From contig CAYULJ010000001.1 of the NCBI GenBank assembly GCA_964445715.1, positions 1 to 52,621 on the forward strand: 52,621 nucleotides of DNA. Direction: 5' to 3'. Source of the DNA: an uncultured Planctomycetia bacterium. Lineage in GTDB: Bacteria > Omnitrophota > Gorgyraeia > Gorgyraeales > Gorgyraeaceae. Position numbers and translations under genes: made by a program. A model generated the notes under the pieces. It was not told the origin of the DNA. It did no database searches and saw nothing but the letters and a program-made list of their open reading frames with translations. Positions 2-51,500 of the stretch are shown here, one piece after another (the stretch's first letter is position 1; the number at the start of each line of letters is the position of its first letter).

Positions 2-545
2 ATAAAAGATGACCTGGATAGCTATAAAGATCTATATGGCTTTGTCTCTTACCTGAAGAAAGTAAACTCTCTTGATTCTGCAAAGCTCTTTAATGAGATA
101 GAAGAACTGACTTATGAGACAAAAGACCTTATCGCGGATAATGAAAATCAAAAACTCCTCACAAAATCCTTCAGACATATAAGATTCTTGGAAAATTTCT
201 TTAATCTTAAAGTTTCAAACGAAGATTTGGATTACTATCTTAAAAATCCAGAAGACTTCAAGGTAGGCTTTTTCGAGGGTTTCTTGAAGCGCAATTTGAA
301 AGAATACAAGATAGGCTCTTTCATAGACTTTAATCCTGACCTGATAGATAAATACCTGCCAGAGCTCGAATCCTTCTACAGAATAGCCCACAAAAGAGAC
401 GTGGCAATGTTCAACAACGCCATAAAAGAAATAGAAAAGCGCAAGGTCAAGACCTCTGCCCTGATAGCAGGAGGGTTCCACACCAGAGGCATAACAGAGC
501 TTTTGAAAGAAAAAGGTTATTCCTATGCAGTTGTCTCTCCATATT
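2..545 (+). other. Domain in giant ORF: C-terminal half of a Tiki/TraB/ChaN(GumN)-like fold, cut by the window edge
   Basis: AHKRDVAMF (R-D-x-x-M, nt 386-412) is followed by LIAGGFHTRG (G-x-x-H, nt 461-490). This matches the second-half signature of the Tiki/TraB/PrgY/ChaN superfamily. The first-half motifs would lie upstream of the window. Confidence 0.4.
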
Positions 546-27500: not shown

Positions 27501-30500
27501 GGGATTACCTGCTCTCGGCAGATGTGTCTTCGGTTCTTGTAAATATGAAGGCACCGTTCCCATGGCTTATGACTGGTGCATTGTCGTTGGTAGCTGTGGC
27601 TGGAGCTATCTGGGCTATTCGAGCATTGCGAACTCGTCGTGAAAAGCCAACTACAAGCCATGTCTCTGTCCGAGGCTCATTAGTAGCTGGGGCAGTTTCC
27701 AGTGTAGGCGTCCTTGCAACAGCCAGTGCAGCTATAATAGGGCTGCCTGTTGTGTTGGTAATCGGTCTTGGTGCAATATTAGGACTGCCATCATTTGCTG
27801 CAGCGTTGTTCTACTCTGCTCAAGGCATATTGATATTTATTGCAAGGCATGGTCTAATAAGAGGGCCTGACAGGTTGAGCGAGAGATTTAGCAGTGTCTC
27901 CTATCGCCTCGATCCTACCTCAAAAGACCCTGCCTATGTAAGAAATAACATCCTCTATATAAATGAAGACATAATGAAACTCCTCCCAATCTGGCTGCAG
28001 GAATCTATATTAGGACATGAGCTTGATCACCTTACGGGAAAAGGTGAGGTAGGTGCTTATATCGGACAAGTATTGAGATTACTTCGCACCTTTAGCGCTC
28101 GCAATGACAAGGAATATATCCTTAATTTAACCCAAGGGAATCTCAGAAATCATACTAGGAGAGTCGCGCAGATAGCGGTTTTACTCGGTCGCCATATGGG
28201 GTTGTCGCGGGAAGAGATCAATGTCATTGAATATCTTGCATTGGTCCATGATTTAGGTGCTTCTCAGGATGTATTTACGCCAGAAGAACTCGATGCGCTG
28301 AAGAAAAAACTTGAAACTCTTGGAATACCCCATGAGGATTACAAAGGTTTTGCGCCTCGGGGCCGATATGAAGAATTTAGAACCCGAGTAAGTGACTTAC
28401 CCGAAGGCACTTTCACAGATAAAGAACAGAGGAATATAATAGGCAGGTTCTATCCTGCAGATAGCACTTTGGCTTTCCTCCGCGAACATGGCCTTCCTGT
28501 AACTCCTGAAGCAGAGCTTATAGTTGGATATCATCATATGTACGATAGGCTTTCACAAGATCCAAGGCTAACGCCTACGAACACTGGATTTGTAAAAATG
28601 GCCCTAGCTATTCTTATTACTGCTGATGTATTTGAAAATGGTAACAATGTGGTTAAGAGAACAACCTGGTTTGACAAGGGGCCTGAATCCCCTGAAGAAA
28701 CACTCGAATTCCTAGAGCAGACATATGCTCAACAAGGGATAGAAGATAGACGTTCCCTGGAGGCATTAAACCAATTAATCGCAGCAGAAAATGAAGAACT
28801 GTTTGATATCGTCCGTGATGCAAGAGATCTTTCTTTGCCAGGCCGACAGGTCAAATATCCTGCTCTTCGAGCCACGCTTACGCGTCCGACAACGCAGGTA
28901 ACATTTGTCATTGAGCTGGCAGATGGTTCTCGCAGGTATTTTTCCCAACGCATAGATCCCGTCATTCTAGATAACGATGAGTCTTTCCAGAGAGCAGTCG
29001 CGGATCTATCCAGAGAATTACAGAGTATTCTTTGGGGCATAGGAGGAGAAAGGGTATGGGTATATTCTTCCAGCAACGCGCCTCAGATAGTTGGACTTAT
29101 AGACGGAGTCATAGGAGAATTCTCTCCTGGTGGCCGCCACCATGATGTAGTCAAGGCGCTTTCCTGGATGTATGGCCGTGAGCGTAAAGACATTACCTTT
29201 CATGTAGATAAGCCTTCCAGAAGACAGACACGTTTCTTTAGAATAGAAAGAGTTATTAATTTCTTAAAGAGGGCTTTCCGCAGGATATTCAGTTTTTATA
29301 TAAGGCGTAAAGAGACAGAAGAGCTTGAAAAACTTTCTAAGGCAAGAGATGTAAGGAACAATATCTCTTCTATAGACGTAGGAGGTTCTGATATAAAGAT
29401 AGCCGCCTATAATAATAGAGGGGAACTAGTGTTCCTGAAGATACATAAAGGAGGCTGGAAGCCTCATACATTTACTCGCGCAGCACAGCATGAAAAAGTA
29501 GTTTTGTCGCTTTTGAGATTGACCCGGCTTGCTATAAGTTTATCCCTTATTCCAGAATCAGAGAGGGATAATGACGTGGATGTTATTATGGCCAGACTGA
29601 AAGAAATAGAGCGCGATAGCAGTGTCGATATAGTAAGTGAAAGCGGTATAAAAAATTTCGTAGAAAGCGCTGAAGAGATCTTGGCTCAGAGAATGGCGCG
29701 CTTGGACGCTATATCTATAAGCTGGCCTGACGTAGTTGTAGATGGACTAGCTGTAGGCGGAGATACATCAAAGACCAGAAATCTTTCCGGACGCAGAGAC
29801 GAAAGGACTAGTCGACCAAAAGACATATATCTCGACGATGAATATTGGGATGAATTCGAAAAACTCATGCCGCTTGCCCAGACCGTATCTCAAAACTTTG
29901 AGAATATACCTGTAACGATACTCAATGATGGCCGCGTAGGTCCTTTTGGAGCAGGAGTTATACTGGGTAGATCAGATATATTAGGCATTGCCCTGGGCAC
30001 AAGCGTTGGTTCTGGAATTTTCACTATAAAAGAATTACCCGATTCCCCTACATATATAGGCCGTATGGATCTACCAGAAGCACCTGTGCCTGACGATGTC
30101 TGGCCGACCGGGCCGATAAGACCTGCTGCGCTTTACATCTCGCAGAAAGGAGTAGCGCGCCTAGCGCCCAGTAAAGGTATTGACCTGGATAGATTTGGAA
30201 ACGATAACCGGGCCAAACTGGAATACGTGCAAGGGTTGGTTGATGAGAACCATCAAGGGGCAATTGAGATATTCGAGCAGATGGGCGAATGGTTGGCAGA
30301 TACAGTGACAAGGGCGCGTTATTACTGGAGTGAAGACGGCATAAAGACTGTTGTGCTATTTGGAAAGGTTACGCAGGGCGCATCAGGAAGGATTATGAGA
30401 GATGTTGCTCAGGGAATAGTAGCCTCCCATGGCATAGAACTCCTTTTCGCCTTTGATCTTACTGATGACAGCGTGGCGAAAAATCTGTCTCATCTGCGTC

Positions 30501-33500
30501 CTGAGATCGAGACCATGAGTAATTTAGCAGAGAAAGAGGAAATGACCAATGACCTCACGCAGGACTTTTTCCAGGCCATTGCCGGTTGCTGGCTGGCTAA
30601 TTATAATCTGGGAGCGGGAGATAGAGCTCCTGAACAGACCTCGTTTTCACTTCCTTCTAATGTAGTAGCGGCATTGCAGACACTTTTGCCTGGCGAAAGG
30701 ATCGACGACACAACCCAGGCAAGACAGATATTAATGGGTACTTTCAGGGCATGGGTTGAGGGTATGGCAGGAGTGGAAGATTTGATCGCTTCTCAGAAGA
30801 GAGGCCATGAGCAGGCGCAGGAACTTTGTGAAAGGTTCCTGGCAGTAGTGTCTGTTGGTTTAGCCAATGAATATCAACGCCCTCTTGATGAAATAACCGA
30901 GTCTGAGTTTGACAGAATGTATGGGGCAATACCGATCATCCTCGCAGGCGGTTTTGGAGAAAGATATTCTCGTAATGGCCTGATGCATAAGTCTATGGGG
31001 CATACGATGCAGGGCGAGACAAACTATCGTTTTGCGCTTTACGGTGGACACTTCTCGCCAAGGGCGCGCCCTGTAGTGACGATAAGTGACTTATCAATCC
31101 GGGCAGTCTTAAAGGATGAGGTATTGTACAGGCTTGACAGAGGCGAGGTGACATTCGATGACCTTATGCCTGTTGAAAAATATAAGATAGCCATCATATC
31201 GGAAGAATTCCTTGACCGCGAAAAGCTGGCGCGTTACTTTACCGAAGATTCTGTAATAGTGCGTTGCAACGGAGATGGTTATGGCGGAGAGTTCATGGAT
31301 GTCATAAGAGAGACCCAGAAAGAGAGCCAGGATGGATTTGCGTATTACATCCGCTTGGATGACGGAAGCGCCCCCAGCATCGATCCCGAACTCCCATGTA
31401 TTCATCTGGTTGCGTGGATGGAAGCAGTGGCCTCCCAGAATCTTATTACCGTAGGACTTAAAAATGATACAGTAATAGCGGGTAAAGGCAATCCTGTCTA
31501 TGATGAGAACGGAATGGTCAAGAACCTGATAGACTGGCGCAATATCTCTTTCGCGGAAAGAAAAGACCTCTTGCTTCAGCTTGTGAAAGATATCCCTGAA
31601 AACAGAGACCTCAGGGTAAGGCTTGAGTTATTCGAAGAACTGGCACCTGAGGAAAGGGCATTGTTGATAGACGAGATACACAATAATATTCCTCTGGACA
31701 GCCGTAATCAGATGCTTATAAACGCCAACTGCGTGGTGCTGCACCGTGGCGCAATACCTTATTTTGCCGAAGTAAAAGAGCATCCGGCGCTGCAGGGCCA
31801 GGTTGATGATCGCAAAGGTATAGCGGAATTCTCTCCCAGGGACGCGATGGTCGTTATCCATTCAGAGTATAAGGAAGGGCGTATTCCATTGGGCCATGTA
31901 GAATTCGAGAGAGGCGTAGACAGCGTGAAGAACGTATGGATACAGAGCGAGTTGTCTCGTTTATGGCAGTCTCAGATTAAAGAGGCCTTAGCAGAGTTTC
32001 CCGGTGTGGATACGGACAGATTAGATTATCTCTTGATTTATGGCGGACCTGGTGGGGCCAGGAATCCTATTGATGTATTAGGGGAGATATTCGGTTCTAA
32101 CCCGGAAGGCATATCGCTGCGCGGGAGAGTTATGCTGGATGCCAACGTGCGGATAGATTCCGGAGTAACGATAGAGGATAGCGTTCTTTTGGGCTCGACT
32201 GCAGTAGCTGAAAGAGCTAATATCAGTAACAGTACATTGCGTAATAGGCAAGTAGGTTCCGGAGATACGGTTGAAAGCGAAATACATTTGCCTGAAGCAG
32301 AAGATACATTATTGAATGATTCTTACTATGAGCGTGGAGGTTCAGGTGTTCCAGAAGAACTATGGGATATCCTGCACGGCGAACCCCTGTTTAGTCCTTT
32401 GACTTCACCTGCCCATAAGACCAACGGACAGATATTAGAAGATATCAGGTATTTGCGTTCCATCGCGCTAGGCGAGGAAGATGATGTCATTGATATAGAT
32501 CGCTCAGAAGACCCTGCTTACGTAACCAATATCATACTTTCCCATATAGGTTTATTTAGCAATCTCTGGACCCAGGATCCTCCGGTTGCAGGGCAGCCAG
32601 TAGTTTCGCCTGTACCTATAGAGGATATACCTTTTGAATTCCCAGAGCCTGAACAGGATAGCCTGGTAAGGGTTTTTGGCAAGCTTGTCTTTGACCCGGT
32701 CAGCAAGTTGATGACGCGCGTTATAGACCAGATAATCATGGCTGGCCCGGTCAGGCTCGCTAATAGTTCGGTCAAGATCGGCAATGGTACATACCTGGAT
32801 GAGGTAGATGTGAACAGCGCTGCTTATATCGGAGATGGATGGGCTATTGTCTCCAGCGAATTAGGACAGAGAGAGCAGGAAGGATTGGTGATTTTAGGTG
32901 ATCATCCTCTGGTGATCGACAAGCGTTCGCGTCGTTATTGGCATCGTTCGCCAGACAGCGGCAGACTAAATAATCCTACTATTATGCAGGATGTCGATAT
33001 ACGGGCAAAAAGGACATACATAGGCCCGGGCGCAGGTGTCGATGTTCCTCATGAAAGGGGCCGTGTACTTAAAGGAGCGGTCCTGAGCGGAGAATACGTG
33101 ATAATCCCTGAAGGCAGAGAGATCACTTCTGATATAGACGGGTTAATGCAGGAGGAAATAGACCTTATCCAGACGCTTTCCTCTGAAACGGTATATAATG
33201 CATCCCACGTCCTGTTGGATGTATTGCAAGGCGAAGATGTCGGAAGGTTTACTTCTGCGGCCACTGCATTGTCTGTATTGATCGCCCAGGATAAGAGGGC
33301 ATTTGTAGAGGACATCCTATCCTGGCTTAGAGCCGAGCACCCTGAATTGAACAATGTCTTGATGCTTAAGATGGTGGCTATATCCCGTATAGTCGATGAG
33401 CAAAAAGTCTTCCGTGGGTTTATATTAGAGCAAGACATTGCGCCTCGTTCTCCTCCTCGGTTTACCAGTTATGATAACATCAGGGCTTCATTGGACATGC

Positions 33501-36500
33501 CTGGGTTAGAAGTTTTACAAAGAGTCATAGGTGAGGCTGTTAATGTCGGACTTGACCCGCAGATAATGGGTAAGGTGAAAAAAGGCAGGGTTTATGTATC
33601 ACAGATGACAAACCTTTCCAGCTATCCCACTGCCGAGGAATTAGGTATGGCTATTGCCGCCAATAGCACTCTTAAAAATGTCCAGGATATAACTGTATTA
33701 TTTCAGGCGCGCGCTGATATAAAAAGAGATGGTACTGTCAATCAGGCAGTTGCTCAGGCATTTAGCGAGCGTTTTGGCGTTGAACCGGACCCGGGTTTCA
33801 TTATAGATCTATACCAGGCCTTATTCGGGCCATTGGATGATATTGGATTGCCGGAAGATGAAGAATTCAGCTTCGTGTGCTTCAGGGGGGGCAGGGGCGC
33901 TGCATGGTTTTTAAAGGAGATGCGTTCTCAGCTGGCTGCAATGGGAGTTGAGCCTGATATGATTATGTTGCCTGGAGCTACGGATGACGGCAGGAGCTGG
34001 TTATTGTGCAGCCTTCTCTTCCGAGCCAGCGGCATGCCTGATATAGGTAAGTCAAATCTCGATATCGCCAGAGATATAAAACTGGCAGAGGTCATAAGCG
34101 GGGGCAACAAGGCACAGCGTATAAACAGGATAAGTGACCTAAGGGTTTGGGAGAATGAAAGACACCCTCTATGGATCGCCTTGACTGAATATGCCGCTGA
34201 AACAGGACATCGGGATAAAGTAGATACTATACTGGGATATTTTGATAATTTCTGGAACGAACTCCAGAGGATAAGGAAAGAGATTAATCCTGAGGAGGCA
34301 AAGGAGACTGCTATCCATACCCTGACAGAGCTCAGGGAAGCTATGCTGATAGGCGAAGTAGTTGTCGGCTCAAGGAAGATCTGGGGAAATTTTGTCAGTA
34401 ATATTGGTCGCTATGCATCTTTAAACGGATATAAGTTTAGTGCAGATGAAAGCCGTCAGCTTGAGAGAATATATGATGTCTTAAGACATCCAGTAGAAGA
34501 ATTTAGCCGCGCTGATCTCGAAGATTCACTGGATGAATATATCTCAGCCCTGTCTGATACAGCCAGAAGAGAACTTCTCTATGCGCTCTTCTGCGCTAAC
34601 ATGGAAATCCCTGACTTCGGTATCCCTGCGCGTAGTATAATCCTTGTTGGCTCTTTTGTTGGCGTTATGCAAGAGAGCGGGTATGGCGCGGAAGAGCGTC
34701 ATTTAGCCTGGCAGGAAGCCATTGACGAAATAGGTAACCTCCTGGAAATCCAGGGCAAGGTAATACCTGCTACTTCCTCAAGATACCATCTCTCAGGATT
34801 GTGTTTCCCCGACCAGGAAATCCTCTCAGAAGACGCTTATAACGAGGTTCCTAAAAAAGGTAACTATTATTACACAAGACTAATGCCTCACCCGTTGAGA
34901 TTAGAAGATAAGCGCAGGATGCGCACTGCTGACCTTGAAGAGAAAAGGATAATCCTCGATGAAGTGGGAGGGCCGATTTCTGAGATTACTACAAATCCAG
35001 AGGCAGTCGAGGCTATAGAAAAAGCTCCTCTGGTTTTATTCTTCCCTACTACATTGGTTTCCAATATAGGCTCTGCCCTGATCGCTCCTGGTATTGGCGA
35101 TGCGATAGAATCTTCCGATGGCTTAGGTATCTATATCCCCAATGCCCGTCTCGAGAATGATCCACCAGGGACGACTGCCTCTGTTATGCTTGATGACTTG
35201 ATCAGGATGATGTCCTTGCAATTTCGGGCAGATCTTTCAGAAAATGGACTTGCTAATGCCCCTGACTATTTAGATTATGTCCTTTTAAGGGTTCCGTGCC
35301 TATATAATGCCTACAGGGCCTGGGTTAAGGGAGAAACAGGTGAGATAGTCGAGACAGGTTATGTTGCTGATGCTATGGACGAGATAAAATCCACAGGGGT
35401 TTCAGTGGTAGGGTTGGATATAGAGGACCCAAAGATGACCTCTAAGGGTAAGTTCCTTGCCCCACCTTTGACCAGGACAATATTACAACTTTATCGTCTT
35501 AGACAGTTGGGCGTTGATATAGAAGGAGACGCTCTTGTCTTTGGGCCAGATGATGGCCGGTCTCCTTCTGCTGTTAGTCTTAGCAGTACTCACATGGAGG
35601 CTATGGAGAGCCGGTTGCAACAGATAGGCATTCCTCCTCAGGTGCCTCAGGAAATCATTGCGCGCCTAAGAAAAGGATTACAGAGCCCTGCGGACTATTG
35701 GTTCTATGAGCGCGCAAAGAGGGCTTTGCAGCTAGGCTGGGATACAGATGTCTTGTCCAGAGAGGAATGGCTTAGTCGCATAGAGCGGCCAGAAGAGGGT
35801 TTGAGCGAAGAGGATTCTAGGTTAGTCAATGTCATTACGCCTGTAGATGCCTATGATAAGGACGGAAATCTAGACCCTAAAAATACCAGCACAAGAGAAG
35901 AAACAGCCAGGCGTTTGGCTTTGAGAATGGCTATCGGCAGAAAACAAGCAATTATTACTGCTAAGGCCTTAGATGAACTTGTGAATAAAGATCTCGAGAT
36001 ATATGGGCCAATAAGAGGGGCAGTGATTGGACTCATGATAGAAGAAGGCTGGCCTGAGCCAGAGAGGATGGCAGATGACTTATTGCTTGATTTATTCGAA
36101 GTTTACTTGGATAGCGGAGCTACTCGTTTCCTGCCCCAGAGAGAAGTAGTTAATCAAACCGAATTATTATTAGATACAGACTATGCAAGAGGCTTTGATG
36201 ACAGAATAATCGAGCATATTAATAGTGTTATCTTTGGAGAAGGGTCAGTTAGTGAAGGTATTAGGACTGAAAGAGCGAGTTTACCTGAGGCGGAAGATAG
36301 CATAGTCAATCTATTTAGGATTCAAAACGGAGACAGTTTAATTGTTACTAAGATACAAGTCTGCCCTCTTGGCAAAGTCAAGACTGATAGACGGATTAGA
36401 GAAAGATTAGCTGTTCTTATGAATGATGCGTTTGATGATTTAGGCATAGGGCCTAACTCCGAAAATGGTAAGATGAGAGTAAAGGCTACTGCTACTGGAA

Positions 36501-39500
36501 CTACTTCCACTGATATAACATTAATAATGCCTGATGGGAGCACTATCGAGAAAGATAGGGCTATCCTAAATATATTCTCCCAAGATCATATTCGGGTAGA
36601 ATTTTATGGCGATGAAGTGATGAGCGGTAATGATAAATCTGTAACAGATCTTAAAGCAAGATCTCCAGAACTCGATCTAGAAGTGGTAAGCGTAGATAAA
36701 GGCTTGAACGAAGGAGATATTATTAAATTAGAGCAGAGAGGCGTGAAGCTGGTAAGAGATGAAGATGGCAATGTTATCTCTGGGCATGAGGCTGTTGCAT
36801 ATCAGCTGGATAGAGAACTCGAGATCTTAGTTGGAGAGTTTGATGAGGAGAATATTCTTAAGAGGATATATAAGCGTCAGGAAAAAGAGAAATCAAGTCG
36901 TATCAATGCAATGATAGATACTGGCGTTACTACATCAGGCGCACCTGGTGACCCAGTGATCGGCGTAAGGTTTAAGCTAGACCATGAAAATGGAGAGATT
37001 AAAGATAAGAGGTTAGAGCTCCATCCATTGTTAGAAGAAAGACTTTCGCAGATAGAAGACAACGAGAATTATAGAATTATACTAACCGCTTTGCTGCTGA
37101 AAGAATTGGGTCATTTTGATGAGTGGAATTATGCAGACTTACTTCCGTTGGCATTCCTGACCCAACAATATATAACTAATCCGGATGATCCAGAGATTGC
37201 AAGAAGATTAGCTGAGCTGCAGCTTGCCTTTGAGGCCCCGAAATATCAAATCCTATATGACTATTTAGTTCAGAATCTTGGTGCAGGTGAGCATGCCCGC
37301 GCAATTCAAGTCTTGACTGAAATGATTGAAGCAGAGACTGACGAATTCTTGCAAGACATGCTCAAAGGCCTCAGGACTTTCATGCTAAATGTCGGAGAAC
37401 AGGGCATAAAGAAAGCCGCGGCTTATGACCTTAGTCAGGGCATTGGTCCGATTGCAAAAGCAATAGAGATGAGTCTGGATAAACTCAATGATGAATTAGT
37501 AGATAGAGCCGTAGATGAAGCGATAGTGCCTGAGCAGTCCACAGACGAAGTCCTGCTCGGCGCGACTGTGCCGATTATCAGACGAGCACATCGCGCTAAA
37601 CTTGCCTTGCTATTAATAAGCGCTTTTGGATTAACCCAGATATCCGCAAGCCCGATGAGCCCAGGGATCCTGACTGATTGGTTGCCTTACATAGGTGGCT
37701 TGGTAGCTCTTGGAATACTAATTGTGAGATTTGGGATTTTACAAGTTGGCAGAGTGAAATTAAAAAATCAAATTAATGGAGATATACAGATTCTTAAAAG
37801 CCATCATGCCAAAAAAGGATATGCTAAGCGCGGAGTTGCTGCTGCAAAGGGAGCAAGCGAGACAGAATCATGGAGAGTTACTCAAGTCGATAGAGCCCGA
37901 AGAGAGGCCAGAAGCTTGCGAGAACAAGCTCTTAGCTCAGAAGGTGATGCTGTATGGGACGGGAAGCAATGGCTTCCTCTTGTTGGCTCGGAGCAGAAAC
38001 AACAAGACTTGCTAACACGAGCTGAAGAGGCATATTGGACGGCAGAGGGTAAAGGCCTGAGACACGGACAGAGAATACATGAACTAGAAAAAATAATTAA
38101 AGAACGGGAGAGAGAATTAAAACAGACTTTGTCAGATTTAAATAGAGCACGCATACGCCTAAAGATAGATCTAAAGCGTTTAAAGAAAGAACATAATCAT
38201 CTAAAGATAGCTTTAATATCTATTAAGGATATGATTATAGGCATGATCCCAGTCTCGGGCATTCTTGTAGCAATCGGATGGGCTGTAAATTTCTTAAACA
38301 ATCGCCTAAATGTAATTAAAAGATCTTCTGATGTACTAATTAAAGCGACCCAGACACCTGAGGTAATAGCTCCTGTAACTCATGTAACTCAAATCCCAGA
38401 TTGGGCTGTAATTCCTATTATAATTGGTGTTGTAGTTGTTGGTGCTGCACTTGCTGTTGGAATTCCTGTTGGGGCAAGCCTTATTGGTGACAAAATCCAT
38501 GGATCTTCTGATAAAGACAATAAAGAAGGCAAAGACATTTCTTCTTCTGATACCTTGAAGTCTCTCGGCATAACTGCTTTAATTACTGCAACAACAGTTA
38601 CAGCAAGCTGCCTGACCCGCTCAATGCCTGTATTTGCCGCAGGCCTTGTTCTTCTTCTGCCTCTATACATGTTCACAAACCTTTTCTTAAAACTCAAGAG
38701 GACAGAGGAAAGACTTGCCTCCCAGGAGACAAGGGCAGGTCCATATGAAGCCACAGGGCTATTCGAAAATAATGCAACCGCTGACAATAACTTAACCCAC
38801 CTTGCAACTACGATAGATGATATAATTTACTACCACCCGATAGAAATCACAAACTACCACCCAATAGAGCAATACCAGATATTCATACATGAATTGACGC
38901 ACCGGGTATTTGGAGCTAATGAAGGAATCGCATATTTTGTGCAGGGTGTAGCAGGTACACTTGTCTTGGTCCCGTTCGAGCTAATCCTACGTACAATAGG
39001 AACAGGTAGAAATCTCATACAGCGAATAGGAAATTACGGCAGGACTGTCCTTAGATTAGTTTCCACAGGAAATCTTTCCCAAAATCTTTTTTTTGACTTA
39101 CTTAAGAAAGCGTTTTCAAAAGTCCGAGGCCTTGCTCCCGAAGAGGAGCTAGAACTGCATTTGCAAAACTTGCGTGATAAAAATGCATGGGTACGAAGCA
39201 CTGCAGTAAAGGTATTAAGAGAGACTAAAGACCGCCGGGTCATTGATGGAATATTGGAAATCGTAGAGGATGAGGATGAGAATATAGAAATACGTTCTGA
39301 AGCAGCAACGCTCCTGGGAGAGATCAGGAATCGTCGACCGGTAGATGGATTAGTAGAACTTTTACTGGATAGCGCTAAAGAGGAAAAGCTGCTTTCTAAA
39401 AAGCCAGTTCCCAGGGAAGATATAGATCTGGCAATAGCATTAAAAAATATGCGCTGTGCTATAGCAGAGGCCTTAGGAAAAATTGGAGGCCGTAGTGCGA

Positions 39501-42500
39501 GAGACGGCCTATTAAAGGCCTCAAGAGACAACAATCCGTCAATACGTTTTCATGTAGCAAGGGCATTGGGAGAGACAGGAGACCATGAAGCAGAGGAAGG
39601 ATTATTGAGGCTATTAGATGATGAAAAGGCATTTGTACGTGATGCTGCAGCAGAGGTATTGGGAAAGATTGGGAATTCTGGAGACTCTAGAATAGAAGAG
39701 AAGTTAATGAGATTATTAACTGATGAAGATGAACATGTACGTTTTTCTACAGTTAAAGGTATTGGAAATTTAGAATTTGTAGATGGATTGATAACAGCAT
39801 TGGCAGTTGATGATCGATTCGTCCGTAGAATAGCTACGCAACTGTTAAGAGAGCTGGGAGAAAAACAAGTCATAAGGACCGGTGATAGACGTGTTGTAGG
39901 GTCATTGATAGAACACGTAGATGACGTAGATGGAGTTGTTAGGAAAAATGCTCTAGATGCATTGGTAGTGCTAGGAGATGAGGATACCATATTTCTTTTA
40001 TGTCAAGTTTTATCAGGTGTTCCTGAAACAGAGGTCGTTTCTATTGCTGACGATCACGACTCAATAGTCGAATACTATCAGCCGTTAGTTTATGACAGGT
40101 TTAGTATGGCAAGTGTTACGTTGCTTGGCGAAGAAACAAGAGTTAGTCCACTAAAACAAAGAATTCCTGATGCGATAGATACAATTTTTGAGAGACTCAG
40201 GAAGCAAAGAGCAGAGAGAAAATTTAATATGGGACAGCTCAATAATCAGAGATTAGGTGAGTTTTTGCATTGGTTAGAAGAGATACCTTTAGATGATGGC
40301 ACATGTCTAGGCGATCATATAGTAGCTTTTGGTGGTGCACCGAGGGATGCATATATAGAGAAGAAACTTGTTGATATAGATGTAACGGTCAAAATTCCTT
40401 TGACAGACCAAGAGAGGGTCGCTTTCTTAGGGACTCGTAGTATGGTTAATGAAAGAGTATATTCATATGCTAAGGAGAAGCTACAACTATTAGCAGAGGC
40501 ATTAGGAGTAGATTGCGAGCTATTTCTTCAGCCTCCAAGTGCAGAAAATAGAATAATGTGGCGGGGAGAATCTGGAGAAATAGAGATACAATATTCTGGT
40601 CCAACAGTTCCTACGGCTGCGCTTAGAGAAAACCAAGAAGAGAAAGTATATTTAAAGAGGGCGTTTGTTGATACAAACACAGGGATTTTATATTCGTCAA
40701 GAACAGGCCCAGCCTTATCACAGATGGCGTTAGACTATAAAGGAAATGTATATGGGCGCGTTCATGCGTTAGATGATTTTGATAATGGAATAGTGAGTAT
40801 AGCAGGAGATGGGCATAATTTTACCATAGGGCTTATACTGCGACTATTACGGTTAAAACATGAATTCGAATTTAGAGTCTTAAAGAATGATTACCAATTA
40901 GTTATTGATACGCTTAAGAGAATGAGCTTGTCAAAGGGAGATGGGGCAATGCCTTCCTATGTTAAAAAGGCTACAAGTGATCAGGTAGATAAACTAATTA
41001 GAGTGGCACAGGATCCGCAGGCTACCCATGAGGAATTAATCGCATTAGGGATATATGAGTTATTGAAGGATATATGGGATATTGATATGCAAGGGGATAT
41101 AGAAGCAATGATTGACAGCGAAGGCCCGGCCAATTCTATTTGGCTGCAGGCCCTTTCTTCTATTGTTTATGTCACCTTACCTTACCTTGCATATTTGTCC
41201 CAGTGGGCTGTGCTACTTCTCCCATTTCTTTTTTATTTTCTTGGCCATGAAGACCTCCCCCTCCCTGTTTTAGGTCATGGCGCGCTGGCGATGTCTATCA
41301 TGGGCATAGGCCTTGATGTAAATCCCCAAGCAGTGGTAGAGTTCCCTAAAAAACTCGCCGGACAAAAGAAGTATAAAATTGTTGTTTTATGTGAGTCAAA
41401 TGCATTCCGCAGTCCTATCTTAGAAGATAGGTTGCTTGAGAGCATAGAAAAAAGAGGATGGGAAGAGTTCTATGATGTTATATCTCGCGGAATGCACCAT
41501 CTAGCTGAAGGCCAGAGCGAACGCTTAAAAAGAGATATTCGCGCTACCTTAAGAGCAAATTGGGAATATTCTGAACGCGTTAGAATGCTCATGGATATAA
41601 CTATTCCTCAACAAATATCTGAGGAAGATGTCAAAGACGCAAGTCTTATCCTGGTAGCGACTCACGGAGAAAAAGAAAGCATTTTAAATATGTATCCTCA
41701 TATGGAAGGAAGAGTTATTTTAATAACTCAGTTTATATCAGAAAAGGACCCTGTCTATGGAAAATTATTACATGGCGAGGATGTGCCAGATTTAAGAGAG
41801 AACATTCCTGGCTTAGGAAAGATCGGAGCGGAAGAACTTTGGAGAATATATAATAAGGTCCTGACAGGACTTAGCGGGTATCTGAAAACGGCGCGCCATC
41901 ATGAATTTATGGCAAACACTAGCGTACATATCATTCGGAAAAATAATCAAGCTTTCATTTATCACTGGGATACTGGAGAGATCGTTTACTTTGACTGGGG
42001 AGAAGGAAGGGGGCTTACCGAAGAGGAGTTTTCAAGCTTGGACAGGGTTACGATAGGGCATATTAGAGCAGCAAGCAAGCTCAACATAGGCGGGAGACCC
42101 AGATTTAATTTAATAAAACACAGAGGCAAGGAGATAGAATTTGATGTTATTCAGGGACAGGTAACAGAGATTAGAATTACAGAGTCCATAGGTGGACCCG
42201 AAGTCATAAGACCACTTCTTATATATATTATCGAAGATGACGGCGGATTAAAACTCGTAGATTCTCGCGGCAAGTTAAGCAAGAGCGTGATGATGGAATT
42301 CAAAGGCCATAGAATATTAGTAAGAGGGGAGAGAGTCTGTGTTGGTAAGGATGGAACTGTGGCTTTAGGCTTGGACCGAACGTACAAAAACAGAAAAGGT
42401 AAAGATGCAGTGTCGAATAAGTGGGTTGAACTTGGGGATAAAAGATTGCATGGGGCAAGATTTGAAGCAGAGTTCGATTGGACAAGTACACGGAACAATA

Positions 42501-45500
42501 CGCACGCAGACTATTATATGTCGAGGATGCGATTTGCAGACGAGGACGGAAAGCCGACTCTGGATTATAGAGGCAATCCTATTGTGAATTATCAGGGAAA
42601 TCCTCTTACGCTTGAGATAATGCCTGCTTTAGAGAGGCATCAGTGGGATGTAAGAAGGCAGATAGCCAGATTATATCCTATACGAGAAAGGGATTTGGAT
42701 GAAAAGACAAAAGGCGGAAGATTTAGATATGCTATTTTCGATAATATTACAGGCAGGTGGAAAGGCCAGGCCAAAGGCGATAAAGAGGATACCCGTTACC
42801 TATGGTCTGAGATCAATCTTGATGTATTGGATGGGACTGCGGATAGTCATCTTTTCGGGCCAAGACTTAATCAAGATGCAAATCTGTTAATACTTCGGGA
42901 GCATTTAACATACTTTGAGCCGCGCAATGAAGCTGCAGGCTTGCCTGTTAAGGTCCGTTATCTATACAGAGAGCCTGTTAGCGCTACAATTGTAGACGAA
43001 GACGACAAGGTTGTTTATAAGGAAGGCACGCCATGGTCAAGGAAAATCAGATTTGGTAAATTAAGCAAAAAACCTGAATCCTACCGTCCAGCCGATGCCA
43101 ATGACCGGAAACTCCTTGTTGATGCTTGTGAGGCAATATTAGATTTTAATATGTTAGTTGCGCTCGAAAAATTGGACACATTCTGGCAGAGAAAAATTCC
43201 AGATGAAAATCACGGACTGGCAGAGAAGTTGGCAGAAGCAGTTAAATTTAAGATAAATAGTAATGATGCAGGAACGGATGTGGCTGATTTAATTGAAGCG
43301 TGGGAAAATAACAGAATAGGCCATAGTTATGAAGACGTTGTGGATAAAATTCTTTTTTATAAATCAGGACAGGGAGAAGTTAGAAAATTAGAAGGCAGCA
43401 TGTTCTTATACCTTTTTGTCGTATGGGCAAGGGCTTTACAGGGACAGGCAGATTTTGGATACAGGCAAGAAGATATTCATAGAGCATTTAAAAGAGCCTT
43501 GATTTATACTTATACGAGCTCACATGAATTGAATCAGGCTAGAGAAAGCGGATTGGTCGATCTTGATTTTGCGCTGTTAAGGTTATTTCTAGGCCCTCCT
43601 CAGCTTAATCCGAGAGAAAAAGAAACGCTGACTCGTATACCTCAACTGTTATTAGAAAAAGGTGTTAATGAGGCTCTTAATGCGAGATATTATATTAGTG
43701 CCATAAAAAAGCTGGGAGGGCGTCCCGTGAGAGACGAAGGTTACGCTGCTAAGCTCGAACAGTGCCTCTATGTTGTTGGGATAGCTGGCAAAGTAGGCCT
43801 TATCAAAAAAGCCGATGTCAGGTTGCTGAAAACTATTGTAAATGGATCCAGGATTCTTAGTTATAAGATTCAAGGTTTATCAAATAGAGAGATCGGTCGT
43901 AAGCTTTCTATGGGTCGCTCTGTAGTCAGTAGAACTTATAATAGATTCAGAGAACTCATTGGCCTGGGTCATATGTTAGAAGGTCTAATTCGCAGTCAAA
44001 GTCTAGATCTTGAAATGCACCTTGAAGCTGCGGAGATAGCTAAAAAGAGAGACCTTATGGAAGACGATCTTAGTTCAGTTAGAGAAAGGCTCTCGGCCCT
44101 TAAAGAAGCAACTAGCAATATCTCCTCCTCTGATACCAAAATAGCCAGTATAGCCGCTACCCTGATATCTATCTCGACAATAACAGCAGGATACCTGACC
44201 CGCTCTGTGCCTCTATTGGCTATAGGCCTTGTGCTTCTTCTGCCTGCAGCCATGTTCATCTGGTTTTTCTTTAAACTCAGAGCAACTGAGACTAGGCTCG
44301 CCTCTGGTGAAATCAGGGCAGGCCCGTACGAACCCATAGGACTTTTCCAAAACAACGCAAGCCCTGACGAAGACCTACGTTACCTTGCAACTACTATAGA
44401 CGGGATCATCTACTACCATCCAATTGAGCTTACAAATTACCACCCGATAGAACAATACCTTATATATATACATGAATGGGCGCATAAGAAATTTGCCTGC
44501 ACAGGATTTAAGATGTTGGATGAATTCCTTGCGTATGGCTTTCAGTGGTTGTGCATAGTGGCCGTACCGGTTGCACTAGTTCTTTTATTACAACAGTCCG
44601 GGCAAGGCTTGTCTAGAAACACCCTCACTGTGCCCCGTACGCAAATCGTAGATTTCGTACGGGGCGTGGCTGGTGGGGCTTCTGGCTTTGCCTGGGCTGA
44701 GCTATTGGGATTTATAGGTATGTGTGCGATGGGAAAAGGACCTAGGCAATTGAACATGTTCGGTGACCAGGGCGATGATTCAGGGCCTGACAGCGATGAA
44801 TCAGATGATTCACAATCTGAATACAATGAGATAAAAGAAAGAATTTTGGAAGCTCTAGCTAGTCTAATAGAATCTGCCAATGCTGAAGCTGTGAAATGGA
44901 CAAAAGAGTTAGAAAGTTTACCAAAAGGCCATACGTCAACATATACTTACTTAGGCGAGATAAGCCGTCAGGAAGCGATTGCCAGAAAAGCTCAAGAGGC
45001 AAAGGATGCCTTGGAGAATAAAGGCGCAAAAGGCCTCATCAGGTATCTGAATAAAAAAGACCGCAGCCGGACGATAAGAGATAGAGGTCGAGGGGTGTCG
45101 CCTTATACTAAGGCGAAGAGTGATATTAGGCAAGCCATACTGGAAGATGCTCAAGAGCTACGCAGTAAAGAGATAAAGCTAGAAGGAAGTTCACGAGGAC
45201 AAGGCCTTGTATTATTTAATATTATCTTTGCTGTAGTCCTAGGGTTAGCCGCGTTGTTATTTGGAGATTTTCTTATAGACCTGATTTTTACAGGAGCGTG
45301 GGATACGCCAGCAGTTCCTAAGGTGTTACTGGCCAGTTCTCTTGGCGGTTTTGGCCTGTTGCAGAAAGCCCTTGGGATTATTGATGGCACCCAAATATAC
45401 GAAGATATTCGAGAAGAATATGGCACTGAATTAAGTGAAGCGCAGGAAAGGATTGCGTTCTGGAGAGACAAGATATCCGAAGTCGCTCCAGATGATAGCG

Positions 45501-48500
45501 AATTATTGACTACGCTCGAATTTCATTTAAGACTGGATACATTTATTGCGCGTATGAATACAGAGATATTGGAATTATTAAGCTCTGTTAATCTTTCTGA
45601 CTTATGGAAACTTCTGGAATTAAACTATAGGATTAGTAGTAGTCTTGCTGCAATCGTAGATAGCGAAGACATTGATCAGCTATCCAGATTAGAGAAAGAG
45701 TGGGAGTCAAAAAAACTTTCTATCTCAATGCAAGTGGTGCAGCGTTCTATCGAGTCTTCCACCTCTTCTCCTAATTCCATCGCCTACCGCATCGCAAGGC
45801 TTTTCTCAGTCGATGAAGAAGTTACCAAACGTATCGGGATCGCTGGTTTATGGCTTGAGATCCCATTACTACTCTGGGCTTCAGTGACTCAGCCTTTTGA
45901 ATTACTTGCGCCAGCTCTGTTGGGTTTTGTAGCACTTCACATAGTTTTAGAGGCAATAGAGGAGTATCGTGCCCGAGGGCAGCTTGATTGGGATAGAGGA
46001 GATGTTATAAGGCGTTTTATTACCCAGTCTGCTGTTTTTGCACCATATGCACTTATTCCACTTGCCATTACAATTAGCTCACCTCTATTATTAGTCGGCC
46101 TCATGCTATTTGCAGCCTTTACGCATATTATTTATGATTTGAAGAAATTTGATACTGCTGTAGAGGGCCTATCTTTTGATGAGATTATCGAAGAGATAGA
46201 AAAGTCAGTTGCGGCGCATGATACAGCTAGGGCAGATCGACTGATAGATGAACTCGACAAGAGACTTGATCTCTTACTTGGAGATCCTTTTGCTGGACAA
46301 CCTTCCAAGGTGACCAATGCCTTAGTATATCTTTTAGAGAATGTCTATAATTCCGATAACATCGAATATTTTTTTAGAATCGCTGCTATTATACTGAAAT
46401 GGCAAATTAAGAAGCCATTGGTTTTTAAGTATCTAAGAGCTTGTCTACAAGACCAACCAGTTTCTGTAATAGTTGAGGCTGGTTCTCTTCTTCTGGGGCA
46501 TACGTCTGCAACCCCGGATAATATAAAAGCAATGAGGGCTTTGACATCTGTGCTAGGAGGCTATTACTCAACCAATGACGAATCCCTTAAACTCAGGGTG
46601 AAAGATATTTTATTAGCAGAACGCAGGAAAGATAAAGTCTGCTCTGCGCTTTTATATGTGTTTCAGGATGCGACACCTGAGGGAAAGCAAGAGTTATGTT
46701 CTGTGCTTGGAGAATTAAAGAATAGAGAAAGCGTCGAGCCTTTACTTAATATGGCAAGAGAAGAATCTAATCCAGCTCTTAGATCTATTATGGCGCAAAC
46801 TATAACTGAAATACTTGAACTTCCTATAGAGCCCGAGTTAATTTTAGAGAGTGATTTCGAAGGTCTTAGAGAAAGAGTTTCGCAGTATATAAATGACGGT
46901 ACCTATGGAGAAAAAGCACAAGAGGTTTTGATAGGCTTGGATATGGGAGAGCCACATGAATTATTGTCTATGTTAGATAAATATACAATAGAGGTTGTGG
47001 GTAGGGATTTGGCTGCAAAAGATGCCATTAAAAAGAAAGCCCTTCAGGTATTAGCATTGGCAGAAGAAAAGGTGGTAAATTTTGGTGAGGTTATAGAAGA
47101 TGTTCTGCCAGCGGTCATACTTCTGGATGGCTTGGGTTCGACTGATATTTTAGATGCGCTTCTTGTTTTCTTTATTGCGCTGCACGAATCTGCGCCAGGA
47201 GGGAGAAAAGTCTTTTTAGACCGCGCTGAGTTTCTTCCGGGCGTTAATCCTAATCGGCAGATACGACATAATGGTAGTAGAACTCCTGTTAGAATGTCAG
47301 ACCGCGTTAAAGATGCAAAACCTCAAGAAATCATTTCTCACTTTGCAAGCATGACAGAGAAAGTGAAGATTAGACGCTGGGATACTTCTTCTATGAGACT
47401 TTCTTCTGAGCGCCAGGTGGCTTTGCGTGACGGTGATTTTATTCTTGAAGATGACCTTAGAAGGATAGGAGATTTCTTGGAGCCTATAGAGATCAGAGAC
47501 GGGAGAGAAGTTTACGACTTGAAAGAAATAACGCCGCGCAAGGGCGTTAAAGTAGTTGCTAACAATAGATGGGCAGGGGGGCATACTAAGTCCACGGAGC
47601 TGCTTCTGCTTAGCCCAGTCGGACTAGACGGTATTGGGACTATTTGCGAAGATGTTCTTTTTGTAAGACACAAGGTATCTAGCGGAGATACACAGGAGAA
47701 CGTGTATCTTTTGTATTCTATATACGCAAATATGCTTCCGAGCATTCTTAAAGAAGGAGTTGAGAAGGGTGAAGTAACCCAGAAGGATATTCGCAGGGCT
47801 TTAAGAGATCGACCTGTAGCAGGTGTTCATATAGGGTTAGATGGAATGATTGTTATCCAGCCCTATTATTGCTGCACGGGTTGGGCGCAATATTCTTTTG
47901 ATCCGGTTAGCAACCTAACAGTAGGAGGAGAGTGGGTATTTCGTAGTTTTATCAAGAGACTGGAGGGATTAGGCTATGGCCCTTATGAGGTTGAATATAC
48001 TCCTTCCGGTATTATTTACGATTCAGAAGGTTTGGTAGTATCTTTAGTCAGCGCAACTGCAGAAAATCCAAAAATGAAATCTCCTTTAAGAGATTATTTA
48101 ACCATGAGAGATGCTGACCCAGGGACACCTTTTTCGGAACACCAGCTAGAGATTATTAGAAAATATGGCCTGGAAGGTGTGGACTGGTTAGCGTTTATGA
48201 CATCGACTGTTCCAGATGATACTCCTGGAGATATAAGAGAGGCGGCTAAGAGCGTAGTAGCGAGAATAAGAGAAGGAGAAGAATATAGGGACATAAGAGA
48301 TTCCTTTGCCGATAGAATGCGCCTTGCTTTAGATACGATATTTTTTGGCATTGGCAATAGATCAGCAGCAATCGGTTCAGATGTGACAGGCGCAAACTTT
48401 AACTTTGACGGCATGTTTGGCAGAGGGAAACTTTCTGAAATGGATGTTCTCCTAATAACTGCTGACATACAGCGATCTGTTGAGCTGCGAAAGAAATTGA

Positions 48501-51500
48501 AGGATAACCGAAAATTAGGTTACAGGCTTCTACCTGACTTGGATGAAGCAGTGATTAGCGACATAGAGAGTTTTGTTATAGATAGAATAAGGGCAGGTGT
48601 TAGGGATTTGGTCTTGCTGGGCATAGGTGGTCAGGCCTTAGGAAACATTACACTTCAGGAGACATTGGTTTCCACTCTCTATAACAGATTTCCGCAGTTA
48701 AGAGGCAGTTATCCAAGGATACATATCCTTGATAATGCTGACGCGCAAGACCTGAGCAGATATTTAAAAGAGAACAGACTCGATCCCAATACGACAGATA
48801 TATATATCAGCTCTAAGTCAGGCGGGACTGTAGAGACGCTGTCTAATGCGTACTTCTTCCTTAATTGGCTAGAAGGGTCTGTAGGCGAAAAAGAGGCGAT
48901 CAAACATATTGTAGTTACTACCAATGATGCAGAGAAGGGGTTACTTTATGGCTTTGCGAAGGAGAAAGGTATAAAGATGTGGTTTATACCCACTGAACAG
49001 GATGAAGATGTCCCTGGCAGGTACTCAGTGCTTTCAGTGAGTGGATTGCTCTCTGCTGCGTATGCAGGCGTTGATGTGCGTAAACTTCTTGAAGGCGCAA
49101 AGTCAATGCATAGTAAGCTGGAATCAGATGACCCCAGGGAAAATCCTGCGTTCCGCGCAGCGATCTTAGCCTATCTTGCTTATTTGGATGGGAAAGATAT
49201 TTTTATTCTAGGCACATATTCGGAAAAACTGCGCTCATTCGCTGATTGGTTAAGACAGTTATTCGGAGAGAGTTTAGCAAAAGACGGAAAAGGTATATTT
49301 GCCGGAGTAGCATCTGGTGTTGATTCTATAGAGGCATTAATAAATAGCCCTGATGACAAGCTTTTTATTCTTTTAGACTATTTACCCGAAGGGATCGTGC
49401 CTCCGGAATTTCGCGATAGATATAGTATCAATTTAGAAATAGAGCATTTGGATGAATATACCGCAGGTCAACTTCTTTACTTCTTCGAGGAATTTACAGT
49501 TAGGTTTGCCAGCCTTTTAGGGATCAATCCTGTTATTCAACCTAAGGTTGGCCTATTGAAGACAGTATTCCAGGACCTTGCTAGAGAGCCCCTGAGTAGA
49601 AAAATAAAGACCCGTCTATTTCTCGATGATAGTTTTGCCTTTGGAGAAGGAGGCATAGATGGGGATGAGTTACGATCGAAAGAACTAGAGGCCAGGGAGA
49701 TTTTAGATGCAACTACAGTTACAGAACCCAAAGAATTATTAACCTGTTTACGAGGATACTTTAAAGAGGTTAGCGCCCAGATAAACAGAGAAAAAATAGA
49801 GCACCTTATTATTATTGGCAAGCGGGCGCACACGTTAAAGGCGCGTGCCCTAAGCATGGCTTTTAGTGACATAAAAGTCCATGTATTTGATGAGACTAAG
49901 TCTGAGACAGTCGAAGATCTATTGCGACTGATCGGGCCTAAAAGTACATTGGTTCAGGTGATGACTGAGCCAGGAGATAAGAGGGAAGATTTTATTCACT
50001 ACAGAGCAGTATATACGTGGGTAAGGAGGCATTATCCAAATCACATAATCGCCACAACAAATGATCCAGAAGGTAGATTTCCTGAGTTTGTAGATGAGGA
50101 TAATGTTGTTAAATTAGGCTTGCCGCAAGAAATTCAAGAAGCATGTTCAGTCAAAGGGATTTCAACAAATGAGATCTTGCCAGCGTATATATTAGGAGTG
50201 GATTTAGAAGAATTGCATAAGGGTATCTTGGGCGTCTCTACGGAATTAGCTGCTCGAATTTTAGCTATACAGTATTTAGCATCTAAAGAAGGGAGAAAGA
50301 TAAATGTAGTATTTACCTATTCTAATGCCCTAAAAGGATTTAACTCCTGGCTAAAGGCAAGGTTTAGACAAGCTTTGGCAGGACTATATAGTCATCCTTA
50401 TGTAGAGACTGCGATTGGTACGACAGATAATCATTCTATCATCGAAGGCATACTCAATGGCCCTAATAATGTCTTCACTATTTTTATAGGGCTATTAGAA
50501 GACCCGGCTTATACAGATGTGCTTAGAGAGGGTGAATTTGCCAGTCCTTTGGTGCCAGATTATCTTTTAGGGAATAGTATGACGGATATATCCACTAAAT
50601 TCCGATTAGGCGCGAGTGAGACTTTTACCAGAGAAGCCAGGTCGAATGTTACTGTAGAGGTACCCCGCCTAGATGCCCGCTCATTGGGAGAGCTGTTTGG
50701 GTTGTTTGAGATGGCAGCGGTCGGGCTTAGAGGGTTGATTATTAATGATGAAGCTGATGAAAGTCCTCATGAAAGATTCAAGATAGCTAGCGAATCGCTT
50801 AGTCAAACAAGTGCCTTGGAATGGGTGGGACCTGACTTACTTGATAAGTTAAAGGAGATAAATGAAGGCAAAGAGCCAATAGCGATAGACCTTAATATTA
50901 ATACACTGCCAGAAGTCTGGGAGATGGATATCCAGGATTTATCGGAAAAGTATAATGTAGATCCTGGCCAGTTTGTCGTATTAAAGCTTGTCTCGACTGA
51001 TTTTGAGGGGAATATAGTTATCCATATAGTGGCTGATAGGCTCGAGCGGATCAATATCAGTAATCTTGGTACCGTATTTTCCCCTATACAGGATACGTAT
51101 CTTTATAATTTGCGAATAATATTGGATTATAAACAAAATTCTGTTATTAGCGAGGAGCGTTATATAAGTAAGGAGATCAGAGGAAAAGGCCTGGGGCATG
51201 AAATACACGTTAATCTAAAAAGGTTATTAGTCAAGTACGGATTTGCAGGATTTTCAATACAAACGTCAGCAGTTAATTTTTACACAGCAAGGACATTCTT
51301 TTCTCTTTACAATGCAGAGATTGACTGGTCAGATCCTTTGAATTTTATAGGTAGGAGGCAAGGGAGATGGAGAGGAATTTTTTCTCGCCTTGGCATTACG
51401 ACATCTACAGATACTGAAAACTTACCTATAAAAGAACTAATGCCAGACCTTTCATTTTTCTATTTAAGAGATTTTCTTAATAGGGCTAAGACAGAGGATG

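Follow-up and report, generated by a model that had tools for sequence, protein, structure and literature searches.

In phosphoglucose isomerase (PGI), each active site is composed of Gly, Ser, Ser, Lys, Thr, Thr, Gln, Glu and Lys of one protomer together with the His of the other protomer, the base being Glu357 and the acid that opens the ring His388, and the C-terminal domain contacts helix alpha32 (residues 405-423) in what are described as partner-protomer contacts (PMC9436075). Glucose-phosphate isomerase-like domains have been reported among the less common domains of the giant Omnitrophota proteins named 'Archaeovorins', the localisation of whose domains is uncertain and in some predictions lies outside the cell (West-Roberts et al. 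2023, bioRxiv 10.1101/2023.11.21.568195). A 2026 preprint (10.64898/2026.06.07.730766) describes 'multi-enzyme metabolic cluster' giants and reports that, of 176 complete Omnitrophota genomes, only 67 have a recognisable glucose 6-phosphate (G6P) isomerase. Neither source, in the passages that were read, was found to mention that a degenerate PGI unit follows the first or that the two build a composite site, and a full-text literature search for tandem, fused or pseudo-dimeric PGI returned nothing relevant. Here we describe a tandem of two PGI-like units, D1 and D2, in a 52,621-nucleotide stretch of DNA from an uncultured Planctomycetia bacterium (Omnitrophota in the GTDB lineage; assembly GCA_964445715.1, contig CAYULJ010000001.1), hereafter the window, which is almost wholly one open reading frame (ORF) on the forward strand (188..52105, 17,305 codons, TTG start, no internal stop). 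The module spans nucleotides 48377-50767, that is, amino acids ~16064-16860 of this giant ORF. Giant Omnitrophota proteins were thus already known to contain PGI domains; the conserved tandem with reciprocal losses appears undescribed.

The relationship of the two units to each other and to known PGIs was assessed by sequence comparison. In BLASTP, D1 matched D2 over 322 amino acids at 24% identity (E = 1e-15). The Pfam family PF00342 matched D1 (E = 2.8e-22; 79.4 bits, cut-off 22) and no Pfam match was obtained for D2; Pfam sees D1 only, and the tandem escapes routine annotation. Upon phmmer comparison with the PDB, D1 aligned to the short bacterial PGIs 2q8n, 3ifs, 1b0z, 3ff1 and 1zzg, and the second half gave only a marginal match, at the His-loop region. 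When D2 alone was compared by phmmer with 1.84 billion cluster representatives, 973 matches were obtained at E ≤ 1e-3; the matches listed below the top three were proteins of 400-470 amino acids with nearly full-length overlap (E down to 6e-24), and all of those read (P0124-P0126) or aligned contained the PGI motifs. Because of the BLASTP match, the PF00342 match of D1 and the phmmer matches of D2, the units are true paralogues rather than a chance likeness, which bears out the tandem of PGI-like domains announced in a preliminary description of this DNA. Compared with full-length PGIs, each half is a full short-PGI unit, and the N-terminal strand of D2 begins ~15-20 residues after the Lys motif of D1, leaving essentially no linker. 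The motifs quoted in the preliminary description (GIGGQALG, SKSGGTVET, GRYSVLS, QLFGES, VDSIE, RQALAG and TTDNHS) were all found in frame where it had placed them; the extent that it assigned to the pair (48515-50766, amino acids 16110-16860) was in frame as well, with a start that homology moved ~45 residues further upstream, to amino acids ~16064-16070.

Conservation of the active site was examined in two alignments, one of six D1s, seven D2s and 15-16 reference PGIs and the other of 82 sequences (the tandems of the window and of two relatives, P0122 and P0123, with 79 PGIs, all aligned to D1), and equivalent residues are given in mammalian PGI numbering (Table 1). All 17 columns that were invariant across the 82 sequences were retained in D1; invariant columns were found in SKSGGTVET (K116, G118, T120 and E122), in PGRYSVLS (R184), in QLFGES (Q263 and E267) and in QPKVGLLK (Q357, V360 and K364). 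The nearly invariant columns from which D1 departed were D-Q-H, which is a gap in D1, and the SIS Ser, which is Gln. SKSGGTVET and GRYSVLS are kept in D1, and the one departure among its phosphate-binding residues is the Ser of the first loop. Equivalents of Lys210, Thr211, Thr214, Arg272, Gln353, Glu357, Gln511 and Lys518 were present in D1, which is without an equivalent of His388, whereas D2 lacks every one of them and keeps that of His388. Likewise, alignment with 15 to 79 reference PGIs placed the Glu in D1 and the His in D2, and showed the loss of the SIS motifs and of the Glu from D2, as had been proposed. His was found in none of the six D1 loops, which have a four-column gap at T-D-x-H in the multiple alignment; the earlier statement that Ile replaces His is therefore right as to the absence of His and dependent on the alignment as to the Ile. 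In D2, the His was invariant (seven of seven sequences) within a loop of the pattern A-[IV]-G-[TS]-x-x-[QN]-H-[SD]-I, with G-T-x-D-x-H-S kept. The loop AIGTTDNHSIIE was the top-ranked conserved 12-mer of D2, followed by the adjoining ILNGPNNVFTIF, and automatic pattern selection likewise picked the His loop as the most conserved part of D2; four of the top six conserved 12-mers of D1 were active-site motifs. The D2 of one relative, L002, does show Glu in the Glu357 column, presumably a coincidence, every other pocket residue being gone.

The losses extended beyond the catalytic residues. Directly behind the strand of its His loop, D1 has a deletion of ~42 columns, which was mapped to the wheat plastid PGI 7e76 through a cyanobacterial-type PGI (L006) as a bridge, Lys193 confirming the numbering used in the paper on that enzyme. 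Helix alpha32 of the wheat enzyme (405-423) falls within the deletion, and the segment is present in D2 and in all PGIs. Conversely, the start of the C-terminal domain, which bears the catalytic Lys, is kept in D1 and lost in D2. In the alignments, the post-His helix, found in D2 only, and the C-terminal Lys segment, found in D1 only, form a second complementary pair. Every element expected around one composite site is retained: pocket and C-terminal segment in D1, His loop and helix in D2. Of the elements expected around the other site none is left, pocket and C-terminal segment being lost from D2, and His loop and helix from D1. The His serves the partner subunit, a premise of the preliminary description with which the published structure agrees, and the helix meets the C-terminal domain of the other protomer (PMC9436075). 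Whatever is kept would therefore fall within a single composite site, and whatever is lost within the second; this is the pattern predicted for a canonical two-fold PGI dimer geometry in which one of two sites is kept. The module is not a homodimer with two equivalent sites: its halves are paralogues that are not equivalent to each other, a single chain contains both, and one of the two sites is degenerate.

We also searched for relatives carrying the module. The three top phmmer matches of D2 were not ordinary PGIs: P0121 is a 491-amino-acid fragment with the D2 pattern, P0122 a protein of 2,625 amino acids from Candidatus Omnitrophota (NCBI MBI3320906.1, 'DUF89 family protein') and P0123 a protein of 2,174 amino acids. 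A scan of GTDB genomes by pattern yielded three more tandems, namely, L001, on a 2.5-kb contig of an Omnitrophota metagenome-assembled genome (MAG) that is open throughout and carries the nearest relative of the window module (60% identity); L002, in a 1,015-amino-acid ORF of a Planctomycetia MAG (CAZOMD010000026.1); and L003, on a 12-kb contig of a Planctomycetales MAG (CAYJWO010000011.1, 1-12077, 68% GC) that is a single open frame of at least 4,025 amino acids. In all five full-length relatives (L001, L002, L003, P0122 and P0123), both units were present, arranged in the order of the giant ORF and sharing its complementary pattern of losses. The ~780-amino-acid module was the only region common to the giant ORF and these relatives and was collinear with them at 36-60% identity (local BLASTP). 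By neighbour-joining, the D1 clade and the D2 clade were each monophyletic, with an identical internal topology, ((window, L001),(P0122, L003)),(P0123, L002), which argues for one ancient fusion followed by co-divergence. D2 is the faster-evolving unit (mean pairwise identity 0.32, versus 0.49 for D1), and the D1 clade stood on a long branch outside the ordinary PGIs.

The module is rare, with just three of the 1.84 billion cluster representatives matching D2 at E ≤ 1e-30. A homologue search with the whole tandem returned, among its 8,000 candidates, ordinary PGIs only, covering at most 54% of the query and without a self match, because canonical D1 words filled the candidate set. When the protein collection was searched with the D2 alignment, two plain PGIs were found and P0121-P0123, which are present there, were not recovered; a scan of metagenome contigs with the same alignment gave just two ordinary 552-amino-acid PGIs of cyanobacterial type (L006 and L007). 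Two further candidates from the genome scan (L004 and L005) were plain PGIs and were discarded. The Pfam domains combined with the module, or found beside it, in the relatives were ROK-family kinase, SIS, HPr, starch-synthase (GT5) and DUF89/ARMT1 phosphatase, and these sugar-related neighbours fit with hexose-phosphate chemistry. The L002 tandem protein lies within a same-strand run of five large ORFs (394-16262) with Pfam matches to NHL repeats, to ROK kinase and Fe-ADH_2, to SIS, to the tandem PGI and, in a protein of 1,628 amino acids, to HPr. The L003 contig starts with the C-terminal part of another PGI-like unit, and directly after its D2 there is a run of Ns with a duplicated ELSGRSIGALAGLFDRTTLLLEGSG on both sides, probably a scaffolding artefact.

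The arrangement of the two units was then predicted with AlphaFold2 (AF2), the input being the MAFFT alignment of the window, P0122 and P0123 tandems with the 79 PGIs, all aligned to D1. For the window module (786 residues), the mean predicted local distance difference test score (pLDDT) was 87.8, with values of 80-93 in D2, and the predicted template-modelling score (pTM) was 0.89, which speaks for a fixed D1-D2 packing only. A replicate with the P0123 module as the target gave a pLDDT of 83.4 and a pTM of 0.88. With two equal domains of ~390 amino acids, a pTM of ~0.9 means that the mutual arrangement of D1 and D2 is confidently fixed in the prediction. The order of secondary-structure elements in the D2 model paralleled that in D1, and all 50 Foldseek matches listed from the PDB were PGIs; short bacterial PGIs matched with target-normalised template-modelling scores of 0.70-0.76 (E down to 7e-23), values for which the aligned half is unspecified. 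The module is thus predicted to have the PGI fold, with its two SIS-type alpha/beta subdomains.

We favour, with a probability of roughly two in three, a single-chain pseudo-dimer of the PGI family with one composite site, most likely an aldose-6-phosphate/ketose-6-phosphate isomerase. An ancestral short PGI (~400-450 amino acids), an obligate homodimer with two interface sites, would have been duplicated and fused head to tail, and the two halves would pack as the subunits of a PGI dimer do, with one of the two interface sites kept. The D1 pocket may then bind the substrate through its phosphate loops, the Arg, the Gln, Glu16361 and the Gln/Lys16458 of the C-terminal segment; Glu16361 would be the base, assisted by Arg16278 and Lys16458, and His16749 from the D2 loop would be the ring-opening acid. 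The post-His helix of D2 would buttress the C-terminal segment of D1, and the reciprocal site would be dead: decay or deletion has taken the pocket and the C-terminal segment from D2, and the His loop and the helix from D1. One site per chain would interconvert an aldose 6-phosphate and a ketose 6-phosphate, by default G6P and fructose 6-phosphate (F6P). Fusion might spare two giant membrane-threaded polypeptides from having to find each other, making assembly independent of concentration, and might make the enzyme a portable cassette of ~780 amino acids, which would explain its movement between proteins. The proposal of the preliminary description that one composite site is rebuilt from two half-degenerate domains is thus supported, though not proven, by the five further tandems, the congruent trees, the conserved His loop, the helix/Lys-segment pair and the AF2 pTM.

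Several observations weigh against an active isomerase of this kind. All eight NCBIfam equivalog models for PGI remained under their cut-offs (best, NF010697, 235.5 bits versus 443); the SIS Ser (GIGGS, Ser159) was Gln in the D1 of all six tandems, a family signature; and the C-terminal signature of D1 differs at four positions from what we take to be the PROSITE pattern. The N-termini of P0123 and of the L002 tandem protein looked signal-peptide-like (by eye only), and sugar phosphates are not obvious substrates outside the cell. In the AF2 alignment, D2 was covered by only three rows, and the loop just before the His was the least confident internal part of the window model (pLDDT 33-64 at module residues 641-660, with values below 50 at residues 647-652); the proposal of a PGI-like dimer interface and of a His that reaches into the D1 pocket is drawn from the pTM and from the logic of complementary loss. 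The Ser-to-Gln change and the missed equivalog scores leave room for an altered substrate, and the same architecture might isomerise mannose 6-phosphate, another sugar phosphate or a differently substituted sugar. The PGI family includes dual-specificity PGI/phosphomannose isomerase enzymes, the Gln of the first phosphate loop is invariant among the tandems, the equivalog cut-offs are missed widely, and the long D1 branch outside the ordinary PGIs points in the same direction. However, the SKSGxT loop is canonical, as is each of the catalytic residues Glu, Arg, Lys, Gln and His, and the nearest matches in sequence and in structure are genuine G6P isomerases, and we consider a different reaction or substrate unlikely.

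A non-catalytic element that binds or senses sugar phosphates or serves as a scaffold, with D2 as a decayed duplicate, seems improbable to us. D2 is indeed degenerate, most of the giant ORF is without recognisable enzymology, and some proteins of this kind are predicted to place their domains outside the cell, where a PGI would have no substrate; yet binding alone would need no invariant Glu, Arg, Lys and cross-domain His among relatives of 36-60% identity, nor would it account for a catalytic set that stays invariant while the other site decays wholly. Pairing of the halves elsewhere (D1 with D1, D2 with D2 of a second copy, or either with another SIS protein), which would make the complementarity incidental, is very improbable: PGIs are normally homodimers and a separate SIS-domain protein is encoded in the L002 operon, but a D1:D1 pair would be without any His and the conserved D2 His without a site to serve. 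Homotypic pairs would also lose the canonical contacts, D1 being without the helix and D2 without the C-terminal domain, the pTM values of 0.89 and 0.88 point to one compact unit, and D1 and D2 always occur together and co-diverge. It is scarcely credible that the module is a chimera made in assembly, or part of a pseudogene decaying within a spurious long ORF, even though a 1,731-nucleotide near-perfect in-frame repeat elsewhere in the window makes assembly problems conceivable, given 17,305 codons without a stop, collinearity with five independent assemblies from two phyla and a conservation pattern of purifying selection.

Table 1. Features of the tandem PGI module, in window nucleotides and in amino acids of the giant ORF
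Feature	Nucleotides (strand)	Amino acids	Description	Evidence
Tandem PGI module, portable	48395..50767 (+)	~16070-16860		Local BLASTP and alignment
D1	48377..49606 (+)	~16064-16473	PGI-like, own-subunit residues kept	Pfam, PDB phmmer, alignments
D2	49607..50767 (+)	~16474-16860	Complete PGI-fold paralogue, own pocket degenerate	BLASTP, phmmer, AF2
D1 GIGGQ	48620..48634 (+)	GIGGQALG from 16145	First SIS phosphate loop	Alignment
D1 SKSGGTVET	48812..48838 (+)	16209	Phosphate-binding, kept; S209, K210, T211, T214 equivalents
D1 PGRYSVLS	49013..49036 (+)	GRYSVLS at 16277 (nucleotide 49016)	Kept; Gly271-Arg272 equivalent
D1 QLFGES	49256..49273 (+)	16357	Kept; Gln353 equivalent and catalytic base Glu16361 (nucleotides 49268-49270)
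D1 SGVDSIE	49313..49333 (+)	VDSIE at 16378	Degenerate His loop; Ile16381 at nucleotides 49328-49330
D1 deletion site	49391..49417 (+)		~42 columns, between GIVPP and EFRD	Alignment
D1 QPKVGLLK	49538..49561 (+)		Kept; start of C-terminal domain; Gln511...Lys518 equivalents
D2 IIIGKRAHTL	49808..49837 (+)		In place of GIGGS; phosphate loop lost	Alignment
D2 MTEPGDKRED	49961..49990 (+)		In place of SKSGxTxET, lost; conserved Asp at former phosphate loop
D2 QEACSVKGIS	50135..50164 (+)		In place of GGRFS; Arg lost	Alignment
D2 ARFRQALAG	50357..50383 (+)	RQALAG at 16727	In place of QLWAES; Gln and Glu lost
D2 His loop, AIGTTDNHSIIE	50411..50446 (+)	TTDNHS at 16745	Kept; His16749 at nucleotides 50432-50434
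D2 post-His helix, NSMTDISTKFRLGASETFTRE	50573..50635 (+)		Kept; alpha32 equivalent; model helix 704-721
D2 end, GLFEMAAVGLRGLI...	50699..50767 (+)		Expected next segment N-P-F-D-Q-P-G-V-E-x-G-K missing in all D2s

A hydropathy scan of the giant ORF gave about 36 candidate transmembrane segments, the final cluster of which ends near amino acid 15320; the tandem module lies past this cluster, inside the C-terminal soluble stretch of ~2,000 amino acids, and the scan was compatible with a cytoplasmic as well as with an extracytoplasmic placement. Pfam matches across the giant ORF were HEAT, CofD-like, HD, LMWPc (low-molecular-weight phosphatase) and PGI, with little else, and in the flanks of the module and in the putative kinase and nucleotidyltransferase regions Pfam found nothing significant except HEAT and CofD. 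ROK-like, GlmU-like and GNAT-like stretches were by-eye guesses without Pfam support and were not used. The direct repeat of 1,731 nucleotides (window 7811-9541 versus 9566-11296, one mismatch) lies within the giant ORF and is in frame, amino acids 2542-3118 being repeated as 3127-3703; it points to a very recent duplication within the gene or else to an error of assembly. Two HExxH motifs, at window ~38886 and ~44469 (amino acids 12901 and 14762), have near-duplicate contexts (YHPIE[IL]TNYHPIEQY.I.IHE..H), each preceded by a similar transmembrane segment (amino acids ~12808 and ~14667), and look, from these motifs, like internal paralogous metalloprotease-like modules; two further HExxH motifs are at amino acids 2281 and 9277. 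Downstream of the giant gene there is a 129-amino-acid ORF with a GTG start (window 52170-52559), and the public protein collection contains no entry with exactly its sequence.

PGI is known from textbooks as an obligate homodimer, and its natural fusion into a pseudo-heterodimer with a single site would give a clean new case of asymmetry after duplication, in which the reciprocal site has decayed on both sides, in catalytic residues, loop, helix and C-terminal segment. This bears on whether metabolic domains in giant Omnitrophota-type proteins can be active, which is feasible for a domain with a built-in partner, and Pfam-style annotation, blind to D2, would miss half of the functional unit. 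More tentatively, and as a possibility rather than an expectation, the tandem may be an active, one-site-per-chain PGI cassette that evolved so that an obligate dimer of glycolysis could function within giant membrane-anchored polypeptides, and that might replace an absent stand-alone pgi in Omnitrophota at the G6P/F6P step. On this reading, giant proteins in general may get round the oligomerisation of their enzyme domains by encoding the partner subunit in the same polypeptide.

With its 17,305 amino acids and few Pfam domains, the window protein resembles the giant Omnitrophota proteins of the recent preprints, and it shares with the 'Archaeovorins' a length of more than 10,000 amino acids, many predicted transmembrane segments, HEAT repeats and sugar-phosphate enzyme domains. 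The evolutionary logic has a counterpart in the mammalian membrane adenylyl cyclases, in which the C1-C2 pseudo-heterodimer derives from a homodimeric class III ancestor (PMC9433096). There, too, a homodimer with two interface sites became one chain of paralogous halves with one catalytic site. Their fold and chemistry are unrelated to those of PGI, and their degenerate site, the forskolin site, took a regulatory ligand, whereas the dead pocket of D2 shows no sign of a new function. Complementary loss of catalytic motifs, following duplication or fusion, has also produced a single composite site in herpesvirus monomeric dUTPases and in ABC transporters with a degenerate nucleotide-binding site, which have other folds and may serve as mechanistic analogies only. 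The closest known systems are the short PGIs of the bacterial/archaeal type (PF00342; Thermotoga maritima 2q8n, Bacillus 1b0z and 3ifs, Thermus 1zzg), which have the same fold, share their catalytic and phosphate-binding residues with D1 and their His loop with D2, and are of the size of each half. Unlike them, the module is one chain rather than a homodimer and has one predicted composite site rather than two; its D1 is without the His loop and the post-His helix, its D2 is without the pocket and the C-terminal Lys segment, and its SIS Ser is Gln.

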